A stretch of 64,000 nucleotides of DNA, taken from the sequence record PP925826.1, one strand, 5' to 3'. Of this stretch, positions 57,459-60,635 are shown piece by piece. This DNA comes from Escherichia phage Antha. Position 1 is the first letter of the stretch. The number at the start of each line of letters is the position of its first letter. The position numbers and the translations under genes are program-made. The notes beneath the pieces are model-generated. The model was not told where the DNA came from and did not search any database. It was given only the letters and a program-made list of their open reading frames with translations.

Positions 57459-58022
57459 ATGATATTTCACATAACTCCCTATCTTTCTGGAGATATTGGA
57501 AAAGGTATCAATGACACAATAAGTGTCTTACCAGAAGATAGTTGGATTTGCCTAAGAGACATTGATACAATGTTTCTTCTTCCAGAACAACCTGCTTGGC
57601 TGGAATCAATTGTCCGTTCAAATCCTGATTTTGATGTTCTTGGTGCATCTTGTAACAGATTGGGATCAACATATCAATTATTTAATAATGAAAGAAGTGA
57701 AGATCCGAATATATTACACCACATTGAGATTGCAAAAAGAGCACATCTAGAATGGGGAAACTCAATAGAGGAAGTACCTACAGATGCTATCTTAGCAGGA
57801 TTCTTTCTTCTCTTTCGTAAGAGTCTGTGGAATGAAATTCCTTTTGAGGAAAGATCAATACAGTTTGATATAATTTTCTCTAAAGCATTGCACGCTAACA
57901 ATAAAAGGCTAGGTTTACTACGTGGGTTATATTTATTTCACACATACCGTTTAGGTAATGATGATCCTAGAAAAGCTGTTTCACACCTTTTACATTGTCA
58001 AGACATGAATAAAATTATTTAA
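57459..58022 (+). CDS. hypothetical protein (possible glycosyltransferase-like)
   Basis: 187 aa; DID acidic motif; context next to glycosyltransferases. Confidence 0.3.
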   Translation: MIFHITPYLSGDIGKGINDTISVLPEDSWICLRDIDTMFLLPEQPAWLESIVRSNPDFDVLGASCNRLGSTYQLFNNERSEDPNILHHIEIAKRAHLEWGNSIEEVPTDAILAGFFLLFRKSLWNEIPFEERSIQFDIIFSKALHANNKRLGLLRGLYLFHTYRLGNDDPRKAVSHLLHCQDMNKII

Positions 58023-58031
58023 GGAGTTATT

Positions 58032-58718
58032 TTGGAAAATACAAAAATTGGTGTTGGTGTTATTACTGTAGGTAAGCGTCCTCTTAAAGATTATCTTGTG
58101 ACTGATCCTAATGCTACTTTTGTTGTACAGTATGATCGGGAACGAAAAGGTGTTGCATATGCCCGTAATGAACTGATGAAGAAGTTTTATGATGAAGGGT
58201 ATGATTACTGGTTTATTTTTGATGATGATTGCTATCCGGTTGTACCAGGTTGGGAAACATACTTTGTAAAACAGGCGAAGGAAAACGGTTGGGATTTCTT
58301 TGGTATGCCTGAATATTTTAAAGATAAAGTAAAAGGTATTGAAGGGGAAGTGGTTATTTGGGAACTAGGTATGTGCCAGTTTGGTATGTATTCACGTGCA
58401 GTTATTGAGAAAGCTGGCTATTTCCGCTCATACACTCACGGTTATGGATATGAGGATGCAGAGTGGATTCAGCGCGTTCCACTGGCAGGTTTGAACCGAG
58501 GTATTCACGGCGTACCATGTCCTATTCGAATTATGGCGTTTATCCATCCTGACGATGTGTTTGGAGATAATCCTTTACCTTTTGCGAATCTGTCAAAAGA
58601 AGAGAAAGAACAGGGGATTGGTGTAAACTGGGAACAATATAAACAATCACTGGAGGATCTTCGCAATGGTAAAACTTTTATCTCTTATGAGGAGGCTCAA
58701 AAATATGGTAAATCCTAA
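58032..58718 (+). CDS. putative GT-A (family 2-like) glycosyltransferase
   Basis: TTG start; GVAYARNELMK and WFIFDDDC (DxD). Confidence 0.45.
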   Translation: MENTKIGVGVITVGKRPLKDYLVTDPNATFVVQYDRERKGVAYARNELMKKFYDEGYDYWFIFDDDCYPVVPGWETYFVKQAKENGWDFFGMPEYFKDKVKGIEGEVVIWELGMCQFGMYSRAVIEKAGYFRSYTHGYGYEDAEWIQRVPLAGLNRGIHGVPCPIRIMAFIHPDDVFGDNPLPFANLSKEEKEQGIGVNWEQYKQSLEDLRNGKTFISYEEAQKYGKS

Positions 58719-59679
58719 TACTCCTGTACTTAAGTGTGATAACAAGTTAGGCAGTGGGTGTGATTACCATCGTATTGTAATGCCATTTGCGGGAAATACG
58801 TTTAAGCCTAAGAAAGACGTTTTAGTTTTTAATAGAGTGTATTCTCGTGGATCAGACGAGGTTAAGCGCCTGAAGGCACAAGGTGTTAAGATTATTGTTG
58901 ATTTAGATGACTTTTATTCACTTAACCCTGAACATTATATGGCTGGTGTATTTACTAATCACTCAAAGACTATTGTAGAGATGGTTAAGTTAGCAGATGT
59001 TGTTACAGTAACAACAGAATACCTAGCTTACAAAATTCGTCATTTAAATCGTAATGTTGTCGTTATTAGAAACGCACTGCCTTACGATGAAGGTCAATTT
59101 ACTTTAACAAAAGACCGTTATTCTGACACACCTATTGTTTGGGCTGGAGGAGCAAGCCATGAACCTGATTTATCTCTTGTAGCTAATACATTTGATGATA
59201 CACTATTGACAATTGCAGGGTACGAAGTGTATCCTTCTGCACCTGTTGGAAATAATAGTCAGTATCTAACTACTGCGGAGTGGGTTAAAGTAAAACGTAA
59301 AATTCCAAATGCACAGTATAAACCAGCTATTAAGAATCTAGGTGAGTATATGTCTGTGTATGACGGTCACAGTATTGCAATTGCTCCTCTGGTAGATAAT
59401 GACTTCAACAACTGTAAAAGCAATTTGAAGATTTTGGAAGCAGGTGCAAAGGGTCTTCCTATTATCTGTTCTCCTGTGCTGCCGTACTTCAATCCGGTAG
59501 ATGCAAAGGCTGTTATCTATGCAGACTCTAAAGCATCTTGGCATTATGAAGTTGTCAAGCTAATGAGAAACCCTAGATACACAGAAGATCGTGGTATGAT
59601 GCTTGCAGAACACGTTCGTCTTAATTATAATCTTGCAGATGCCAATGAACTGCGTCGTCAAGTTATTGAAAGTCTTTAA
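58705..59679 (+). CDS. putative glycosyltransferase (GT-B-like), tandem paralog 1
   Basis: C-terminal KSNLKILEAGAKGLP; homologous to 59691-60635. Confidence 0.45.
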   Translation: MVNPNTPVLKCDNKLGSGCDYHRIVMPFAGNTFKPKKDVLVFNRVYSRGSDEVKRLKAQGVKIIVDLDDFYSLNPEHYMAGVFTNHSKTIVEMVKLADVVTVTTEYLAYKIRHLNRNVVVIRNALPYDEGQFTLTKDRYSDTPIVWAGGASHEPDLSLVANTFDDTLLTIAGYEVYPSAPVGNNSQYLTTAEWVKVKRKIPNAQYKPAIKNLGEYMSVYDGHSIAIAPLVDNDFNNCKSNLKILEAGAKGLPIICSPVLPYFNPVDAKAVIYADSKASWHYEVVKLMRNPRYTEDRGMMLAEHVRLNYNLADANELRRQVIESL

Positions 59680-59690
59680 TAAGGAGCGAT

Positions 59691-60635
59691 ATGCCTAATA
59701 TTATTCTTGACACACGCGGAAATGAAAAGTATAGTGTATGTGATTTTCATAGAATCATTCTGCCATATAAACGCAAACTGACCATTAATCCTAAGCATAA
59801 TATTTTTGTGTTCAATGGAGTACCAACCCGTGGAAAGCCAGGTTTCCTGGCTCTTAAACAACTTGGGTTTAAATTGGTAATGGATCTGGATGATTCTTTA
59901 ATTATTCCTGAAGGACATATGCTTGAAGGATTATTTGAAAATCAAATCCGAGATGACCTAAAATGGTTCCTTGAAAGAAGCGATCTTGTAACTACAACAA
60001 CTCCAGCATTAAAGGTTGAATTAAGCCAATACAATGATAATGTACATATTGTGCCTAACGGACTACCTTTTGACGAAGGGCAGTTTGTTCTTACTAAAGA
60101 TCGTTATTCTAAAAGTCCACTGGTTTGGGCGGGAAGTGAAACACATAAACATGATTTAGCTATTCTTCCTAGTTTTGGTAAAGATTTAACTTTATGTGGA
60201 TTTCGTAGAGATCACGAAGAGTTAAGTAGTGCTCAATGGTTGCAAATTAAAGAAAATATTCAACCAGATTGTGTTTATGAAGGTATTCGTCCTTATGAGT
60301 GTTATATGGAAGCATACGATGGTCATCAAATCTCCATAGCTCCATTAGTAAATAATCATTTTAATAATGCCAAAAGTAATTTAAAAATTCTTGAAGCTGG
60401 TGCTAAAGGTTTGCCACTCGTTTGTTCACCACGAGAGAACTACTATACTGAAGAATTTAAAGATCTAATCTTCTTTGCTGATTCAGTTAAAGAGTGGAAA
60501 GATATTGTAGAATACTTAATCGAATCTCCTGATGTTTGTATTGAGAAAGGATTGGCTCTTGCTAAGTATGTAAGAGATAACTACAATATTGATGATTTAA
60601 ATGAAACCCGCAGACTGCTTATCGAGGATTTATAA
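59691..60635 (+). CDS. putative glycosyltransferase (GT-B-like), tandem paralog 2
   Basis: collinear similarity to 58705-59679. Confidence 0.45.
   Translation: MPNIILDTRGNEKYSVCDFHRIILPYKRKLTINPKHNIFVFNGVPTRGKPGFLALKQLGFKLVMDLDDSLIIPEGHMLEGLFENQIRDDLKWFLERSDLVTTTTPALKVELSQYNDNVHIVPNGLPFDEGQFVLTKDRYSKSPLVWAGSETHKHDLAILPSFGKDLTLCGFRRDHEELSSAQWLQIKENIQPDCVYEGIRPYECYMEAYDGHQISIAPLVNNHFNNAKSNLKILEAGAKGLPLVCSPRENYYTEEFKDLIFFADSVKEWKDIVEYLIESPDVCIEKGLALAKYVRDNYNIDDLNETRRLLIEDL

Follow-up and report, generated by a model that had tools for sequence, protein, structure and literature searches.

A glycosyltransferase cluster upstream of the primase-helicase gene of Escherichia phage Antha, with a candidate role in virion glycosylation

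INTRODUCTION

What does a virulent phage glycosylate with four glycosyltransferases that are encoded next to its replication genes? The question is raised by a cluster at positions 57459-60635 of a 64,000-nucleotide stretch, one strand, of Escherichia phage Antha (PP925826.1; hereafter the window). An earlier note, made from the sequence alone, had suggested that the cluster attaches sugars either to phage DNA, with consequences for restriction evasion, or to a host surface structure. From the analysis described here, it appears that the four enzymes may instead assemble a rhamnose-containing oligosaccharide stepwise on the proteins of the virion, a reading to which we assign a probability of roughly 0.4.

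Public annotation already lists these genes as glycosyltransferases, and the sugar pathway that might supply them has been discussed twice in print (PMC8594841, PMC7552041). No experimental paper on the four genes and no functional test of them were found in the literature searched, and the cluster is an uncharacterised example of phage-encoded glycosylation cassettes.

RESULTS

Two GT-A and two GT-B glycosyltransferases

Four plus-strand open reading frames (ORFs) make up the cluster, as the earlier note had described: ORF1 (57459-58022, 187 aa), ORF2 (58032-58718, 228 aa, with a TTG start and an AAGGAG ribosome-binding site), ORF3 (58666-59679, 337 aa as called, pI 8.9) and ORF4 (59691-60635, 314 aa). 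By position they correspond to gp166, gp165, gp164 and gp163 of phage phi92, respectively. All four belong to PHROGs families that are named for glycosyltransferases (E values of 1e-79 to 1e-149), with both ORF3 (3.9e-149) and ORF4 (2.1e-145) in phrog_7162. Because these names merely mirror earlier annotation, the folds were examined directly. None of the four proteins contained a transmembrane segment.

ORF1 and ORF2 each showed the single Rossmann-like alpha/beta/alpha nucleotide-binding domain of GT-A enzymes. ORF1 is a minimal, soluble version, which matched nothing in Pfam; its family comprises 1205 clusters in a library of 1.84 billion proteins and has no Pfam model. Both aspartates of its DxD motif (D34 and D36) were unchanged across 33 family sequences, and N66, R67, H88, D137, H161, Y163, R164 and H176 were also invariant. 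ORF2 contains the motif WFIFDDDC, to which the earlier note had drawn attention, and across 18 sequences D64, D65 and D66 (FxFDDD) were invariant together with E141 and D142 of a YGxED motif, which is of the Gal/GalNAc-transferase type. The proposal of a GT-A-like DxD protein was therefore sound for ORF2 but incomplete, since the equally invariant DxD of ORF1 brings the number of GT-A enzymes to two. A kinship between these two could not be upheld; their DxD motifs align, but the hhalign probability was a nonsignificant 1.4%, and they were treated as separate GT-A families. Searches of solved structures with ORF1 and ORF2, as single sequences and as family profiles, yielded nothing useful, and when ORF2 was compared with BFVD folds, the matches were viral proteins of a generic GT2-like kind that gave no hint of an acceptor.

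ORF3 and ORF4 are indeed full-length tandem paralogs (324 aligned residues, 41% of them identical; E 5e-83), and the GT-B-like motif KSNLKILEAGAKGLP that had been noticed was found in both. ORF4 matched Pfam Glyco_trans_1_2 with 26.8 bits, above the gathering score of 25; the matches of ORF3 to Pfam group 1 models were below threshold. Among the 39 members of the family, Glyco_trans_1_4 was matched by 28 and Glyco_trans_1_2 by 27, in keeping with a C-terminal Rossmann domain that binds nucleotide sugars; for the second, N-terminal Rossmann domain of the GT-B fold, the signal was limited to weak matches of 11 members to the Glyco_transf_4 model. A profile search of solved structures with the family returned only weak matches, to GT4-type enzymes such as TreT and MshA-like and PglA-like enzymes; one weak match, to 6kih, spans positions 92-317 (E 0.027). 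Canonical GT4 glycosyltransferases carry an EX7E motif. In the Antha family this motif is lacking, the segment being F224-N-N-A227-K-S-N-L-K-I-L-E235, with E235 invariant and alanine at the position of the first glutamate. The motif of the pair looks more like the CgeB/Glyco_trans_1_2 type than like classical GT4.

The true start of ORF3 is probably the ATG at 58705, which gives a protein of 324 aa, because GAGGAGG lies nine bases upstream and the N terminus then matches that of ORF4. Single-copy GT-B homologs from relatives L005 and L017, Klebsiella phage FKP3 (PP895363; L012/L013), phage L018 and Burkholderia (P0109) were all nearer to ORF3 than to ORF4, suggesting that ORF3 is ancestral and ORF4 the younger tandem duplicate. 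ORF4 is probably active, since it retains every residue that is invariant in the family (over the columns common to both paralogs). The Burkholderia protein, from B. dolosa contig JAIMDN010000082 (L007), was the sole bacterial homolog of the GT-B family seen. It is 43% identical to ORF3, its gene overlaps one for a 571-aa protein, and an intimin/invasin-type inverse autotransporter is encoded just upstream, a context that hints at adhesin glycosylation.

A dTDP-L-rhamnose pathway distributed like the cluster

The rml genes lie outside the window, about 11 to 13 kb before its start, and were examined in the near-identical genome PQ438393. There, rmlB, rmlA, rmlC and rmlD occupy 100630-103891, and all four proteins scored above their TIGRFAM equivalog cutoffs (RmlB, 442 bits versus a cutoff of 365; RmlA, 473 versus 361; RmlC, 260 versus 156; RmlD, 254 versus 224). 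The pathway to dTDP-L-rhamnose is thus complete, as Olsen et al. reported for both Justusliebigvirus and Phapecoctavirus (PMC7552041). ORF1 and RmlC, each at 60% identity or more, were found in 131 phage records apiece, and the tallies of RmlC and ORF1 by organism were almost equal (Escherichia, 105 and 105; Campylobacter-labelled, 5 and 5; Klebsiella, 8 and 9).

The relatives add a second link. In L005 and L017, which are more distant, the order is ORF1 homolog, short-chain dehydrogenase/reductase (SDR), ORF2 homolog, single GT-B, small protein and primase; the top match of the SDR was dTDP-glucose 4,6-dehydratase, at 171 bits, which is under the equivalog cutoff. From the codistribution of the cluster with the rml genes and from this dehydratase inside the relatives' cluster, we infer that at least one of the cluster glycosyltransferases would use dTDP-L-rhamnose. 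Phage FKP3 has rmlC and rmlD only, with no rmlA or rmlB, and retains ORF1, ORF3 and an ORF2-like glycosyltransferase. Its locus holds only the ORF1 homolog and a single GT-B, the ORF2-like gene having been relocated to 137130-137762. In tblastn the FKP3 GT-B was broken into three pieces, as a frameshift or a sequencing error might cause.

Megablast of positions 57000-61000 matched 56 phage records, nearly all at 95 to 99% identity; in 52 records the match covered 80% of the query or more. Escherichia phages JLBYU50 and vB_Eco_J-01 were the top matches (99.0%), and further matches included phi92, muut and the BASEL phages PaulScherrer (Bas60) and EmilieFrey, all of genus Justusliebigvirus in subfamily Stephanstirmvirinae. 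The four genes are annotated as glycosyltransferases in the matched records, the labels in the BASEL records being "putative glycosyltransferase" for two genes and "putative disaccharide synthase" for two. In the phage collection, proteins at least 60% identical to ORF1 through ORF4 were restricted to about 126 to 131 records of Justusliebigvirus and Phapecoctavirus. Five records labelled "Campylobacter phage," with Campylobacter jejuni given as host (MG065639, MG065645, MG065656, MG065689 and MG065650), are probably mislabelled or contaminant sequences; three have about 98% DNA identity to Antha in the region searched, and the other two gave protein matches typical of Justusliebigvirus/Phapecoctavirus.

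Distant homologs beside head and packaging genes

Distant homologs of three of the families were found in or beside the head and packaging operons of four unrelated phages. The ORF1 family forms the C-terminal half of gp39 of Cellulophaga phage phi18:2, which is encoded between the portal/minor capsid and the protease/major capsid genes and adjoins a Methyltransf_24 gene. In metagenomic phage L006, the same family occurs twice between terminase and portal/capsid genes, with UDP-galactopyranose mutase, GT2, polysaccharide deacetylase and two methyltransferases as neighbors. Streptomyces phage KimJongPhill encodes a sugar epimerase, a methyltransferase and a member of the ORF3/ORF4 GT-B family (gp4 to gp6, the GT-B being gp6), and only one gene stands between this set and that for the large terminase. 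Phage L018 (36.5 kb) has an ORF2 homolog (hhalign probability, 98.2%) next to an ORF3 homolog (37% identity), and this pair heads an operon with genes for the small and large terminase, portal, MuF, protease and capsid. A large sugar cluster of L016, which also comprises GT-D, TOD1, DegT, SDR and methyltransferase genes, holds the ORF1 family as well.

A further context was provided by the mycobacteriophages, in which ORF2 matched 341 records. ORF2 and gp98 of phage Pacc40 aligned over 188 columns with an hhalign probability of 99.2% (E 1.8e-19), including the FxFDDDCYP segment. Pacc40 gp100, encoded two genes further downstream, has 84.5% identity to gp110 of phage Che8. PMC12363180, citing Freeman et al. 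2023, describes Che8 gp110 as one of two essential glycosyltransferases of capsid glycosylation (see also PMC11256854). Virion proteins are the favored acceptor because of these two observations, namely the placement of distant homologs by head and packaging operons and the homology of ORF2 to Pacc40 gp98.

Several points weigh against this assignment. A direct link to the proven Che8 enzymes failed, as the mycobacteriophage homolog of ORF2 is the Pacc40-type gp98 and not one of Che8 gp108 to gp110; tblastn against the Che8 right arm found no homolog, and all hhalign probabilities of the ORF1, ORF2 and ORF3/ORF4 families against gp108, gp109 and gp110 were 0.8% or lower. As far as sequence comparison goes, the mycobacteriophage link is one of cassette context, not of orthology to a proven enzyme. 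No glycosylated virion protein of phi92-like phages was reported in the literature searched, and a sequence scan of the structural proteins found no Ser/Thr-rich tail of the mycobacteriophage type, the matches being a nonstructural 201-aa protein and the N terminus of a tail protein, neither of which was convincing. The cluster lies in the replication arm rather than in the structural module, and the context argument is built on distant homologs of 25 to 37% identity.

DNA as the acceptor

The main idea of the earlier note was that the cluster glycosylates the bases of phage DNA, for instance as rhamnosylated hydroxymethyl-pyrimidines, and so protects it from restriction; Olsen et al. speculated likewise on the rml pathway (PMC7552041). 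The position of the cluster directly before the genes for primase-helicase and DNA polymerase, which is kept down to about 44% identity, would suit such a role. So would the weak match of ORF2 to Pfam TAGT (PF20691), since 17 of the 18 members of its family gave a weak match to this model, that of ORF2 being the strongest (E 6.8e-05). However, the ORF2 match reached only 23.3 bits versus a gathering score of 27.5 and aligned only residues 16-75, to profile positions 37-96 of 205. It is limited to the generic nucleotide-binding part, and the family is equally near GT2 and Glyco_transf_7C. When the GT-B family profile was searched against solved structures, neither the T4 alpha- or beta-glucosyltransferase nor EarP was matched.

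The chemistry that would have to precede the sugar was not detected either. In every known sugar-on-base system, the sugar is attached to a hydroxymethyl pyrimidine, which either a ThyA-family hydroxymethylase or a TET/JBP dioxygenase has to provide. The window ORFs of at least 200 aa and the further hypothetical proteins of PQ438393 that were scanned, the small ORFs being covered in part, showed no Tet_JBP or ThyA-type domain, and no hydroxymethylase or TET/JBP annotation exists across PQ438393. The one thymidylate synthase gene of that genome gave a weak ThyX-type match (35.5 bits versus a cutoff of 87.9). A cupin-like 200-aa protein (55506-56108) was considered as a dioxygenase and rejected, as it has no HxD motif and as L008 and L009, two metagenomic relatives, have no gene at that place. 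We also know of no DNA-sugar system with as many as four glycosyltransferases. Because there are four of them in Antha, in a complement that varies among relatives (four; three with an SDR; two at the FKP3 locus), an oligosaccharide fits better than a base modification.

Shortly before the place where the window begins, PQ438393 encodes a DNA methyltransferase of the C-5 cytosine type (112967-113956; Pfam DNA_methylase, E 2e-43). An N6/N4 methyltransferase is encoded at 34704-35435 of that genome; a gene at 68547-69026 annotated "DNA methyltransferase" actually encodes an XkdF-like protease domain. The C-5 enzyme could provide a site-specific 5-methylcytosine precursor if a TET-like oxidase existed, and a rare, site-specific modification of DNA by this enzyme with an unrecognised oxidase is a marginal possibility.

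Restriction sites offered a separate line of evidence. In the 146.6-kb genome PQ438393, 18 of 59 testable 6-bp palindromes were missing, compared to 8 of 3896 nonpalindromic hexamers (0.21%); the missing palindromes included AAGCTT, CTGCAG and AGTACT, with expected counts of 44, 29 and 24. The window alone lacked 13 of 47 testable palindromic hexamers, among them AAGCTT, CTGCAG, GGATCC, GGTACC and AGTACT, compared to 2 of 3520 nonpalindromic ones. The observed/expected ratios of GGCC, CCGG and CATG were 0.44 to 0.53. Such extreme avoidance of palindromes suggests that the DNA of the phage can be read by restriction enzymes, since sites would be expected to be purged only from exposed DNA, a reading in line with classical studies of site avoidance in phages. 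The BASEL study calls phi92-like phages exceptionally susceptible to restriction-modification (RM) systems despite such machinery (PMC8594841).

T-even DNA glucosylation (gp42 dCMP hydroxymethylase with alpha- and beta-glucosyltransferases) and TAGT are similar to the Antha cluster in that Leloir glycosyltransferases are encoded by early or middle genes near replication functions. ORF2 also gives its weak TAGT-like signal. The Antha cluster differs in that no hydroxymethylase or TET/JBP enzyme was found, the TAGT threshold is not reached and no similarity to the T4 glucosyltransferases was seen; phages of the Antha type are RM sensitive and avoid palindromes, and the donor in Antha is likely to be a dTDP-sugar and not UDP-glucose. 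We consider DNA glycosylation very improbable. The published idea that the dTDP-rhamnose genes serve it is poorly supported, and restriction resistance of these phages should not be assumed.

The host envelope, small molecules and host proteins as acceptors

The main rival to virion-protein glycosylation was the second option of the earlier note, in which a glycoconjugate of the host envelope is remodelled during infection. Rhamnose and other sugars would be added at the cytoplasmic face of the inner membrane, either to undecaprenyl-linked intermediates of enterobacterial common antigen (ECA), O-antigen or NGR glycan or to the lipopolysaccharide (LPS) core, and the masked receptor would block superinfection or keep progeny from being trapped on debris. 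The absence of transmembrane segments and the basic ORF3 would suit peripheral membrane glycosyltransferases. Receptor masking would moreover be meaningful, in that these phages recognise surface glycans (PMC8594841, PMC11990801). Nevertheless, in the short cycle of a virulent phage the new glycan must replace existing surface molecules, and the cluster has no flippase, polymerase, ligase or GtrA/B-like partner. The homologs in small phages, furthermore, lie in head and packaging operons and not by lysogenic-conversion genes. Envelope remodelling is therefore unlikely in our judgment and is not favored over glycosylation of virion proteins.

The surroundings of the cluster bear on a different acceptor in the cytoplasm. 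Upstream, and also present upstream of the cluster in L008, L009 and L017, is a Ter-type module on the plus strand (46094-55453), whose genes, identified by family matches, encode a HAD hydrolase (46094), a ComF-like PRTase_3 protein (46761), a Macro-domain protein (47494), TerC (48884), TelA (51640), a vWA-TerF-like protein (53990) and TerD (54857). L008 and L009, at about 50 to 60% protein identity, keep the block TerC, TelA, vWA-TerF, TerD, cell-wall hydrolase, small ORFs, ORF1 to ORF4, the 89-aa protein, primase-helicase and PolA. Conservation of this block, with the PRTase/HAD/Macro module nearby, could indicate that the sugars are transferred to a host protein as a takeover effector or to a small molecule, for which the nucleoside-like metabolite that has been proposed for Ter-linked PRTase/HAD genes is a candidate; the B. 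dolosa homolog beside its autotransporter gene likewise hints at protein acceptors. On the other hand, the glycosyltransferase families occur without Ter genes in L018, KimJongPhill and the Cellulophaga phages, and in Antha a terminator-like hairpin and unrelated genes part the two sets of genes. This hairpin (55463-55478, after the TerD gene) was the sole strong one in a terminator scan, which found none within the cluster; the accompanying promoter scan was not discriminating, with 51 promoter-like sites versus 37 expected. We know of no precedent for a small-molecule or host-protein acceptor of such a phage cluster, and we regard it as quite unlikely.

Neighboring genes and other features of the window

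Downstream, the primase-helicase that the earlier note had placed after the cluster is present at 60917-62689 (plus strand) as a T7 gp4-like protein with Pfam Toprim_2 and DnaB_C domains (phrog_239; E 1.2e-166). It is conserved downstream context and lies outside the glycosylation function. Between it and ORF4 is ORF5 (60635-60904, plus strand), an acidic 89-aa protein (pI 4.1; phi92 gp162; phrog_4240, E 8.4e-35). In the relatives L005, L008, L009, FKP3 and L017, the ORF5 gene always follows the last GT-B gene and precedes that for the primase-helicase, with homology confirmed by local tblastn, and ORF5 may belong to either neighbor.

Between TerD and the glycosyltransferase cluster, a place that is constant in relatives, a SleB-type cell-wall hydrolase is encoded (56201-56710, plus strand; Pfam Hydrolase_2, E 6.5e-20), whose N terminus bears a hydrophobic stretch resembling a signal sequence. 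Between TerC and TelA, positions 50079-50684 (plus strand) encode a 201-aa protein that had no family match and that has a Ser/Tyr/Lys-rich C-terminal tail, SYSSPISSYSKSSKSYSSSKRSFSSSRRR. A 937-aa UvrD-like helicase ORF (37108-39921, plus strand) gave weak, subthreshold Intein_splicing/Hint matches at about residues 267-613, and its ortholog in vB_Eco_J-01 is 578 aa long, which suggests a possible isolate-specific intein insertion. In the early region (27589-29780, minus strand), a 329-aa protein with CapR homology and T5orf172 is encoded beside a 375-aa AAA/STAND-like NTPase; the counterpart of the former in vB_Eco_J-01 is longer and is annotated "endonuclease."

DISCUSSION

ORF1 through ORF4 encode soluble cytoplasmic Leloir glycosyltransferases, two of them metal-dependent GT-A enzymes and two GT-B paralogs, apparently made together with the replication genes. 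In the mechanism that we propose, the enzymes most likely act one after another, each transferring a single sugar from a nucleotide-sugar donor; dTDP-L-rhamnose from the phage's own RmlB, RmlA, RmlC and RmlD would be one of the donors. A short oligosaccharide of mixed sugars would result, on an acceptor other than DNA. We infer that this stepwise addition takes place on the phage's own virion proteins (capsid, tail or both) in the infected cell, so that the particle would gain a glycan coat, as it does in mycobacteriophages and giant viruses.

Of the known systems, the mycobacteriophage cassettes (Che8 gp108-110 and Pacc40 gp98-100 of cluster F; also those of Corndog and Myrna) are similar to the Antha cluster in that phage glycosyltransferase genes adjoin one another outside the structural module, and in that the cassette holding the ORF2 homolog Pacc40 gp98 also holds the Che8 gp110 ortholog. 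In contrast, the Antha cluster has no detectable homolog of Che8 gp108, gp109 or gp110 (the last being the counterpart of Corndog gp38), and Antha has a Gram-negative host, its own dTDP-rhamnose pathway and two GT-B paralogs. Virion glycosylation, proven for the mycobacteriophages, is a proposal for Antha. Giant viruses also encode a rhamnose nucleotide-sugar pathway and several glycosyltransferases, but the similarity to Antha is at the level of the fold, the hosts belong to another domain, and UDP-rhamnose takes the place of dTDP-rhamnose. In Bacillus subtilis, the spore surface is glycosylated by products of the sps and cge operons, which include SpsA (GT-A), SpsI-L (equivalent to RmlA-D) and CgeB, of the Glyco_trans_1_2 family. 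There too, a shell made of protein is decorated by a GT-A and a GT-B of Glyco_trans_1_2 type together with an rml pathway, and ORF4 matches the CgeB-type Pfam family; this is a bacterial developmental system, however, and the comparison would be one of analogy, not orthology.

We know of no phage of Gram-negative bacteria whose virions are glycosylated by a system of its own. That the cluster, fed by the phage's dTDP-rhamnose genes, coats the virion with a glycan that contains rhamnose, which would be the first such case, is put forward tentatively. If this is true, the system would be shared by about 130 sequenced Justusliebigvirus and Phapecoctavirus phages of broad host range, of which many were isolated on pathogenic Escherichia coli or studied for therapy or biocontrol; phi92-like and phAPEC8-like phages, whose host ranges are very broad, have been isolated repeatedly on pathogenic E. 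coli. A rhamnose-containing glycan could alter antibody recognition, stability and pharmacokinetics, in keeping with reports on glycosylated mycobacteriophages, and virion glycosylation would be extended to genetically tractable coliphages.

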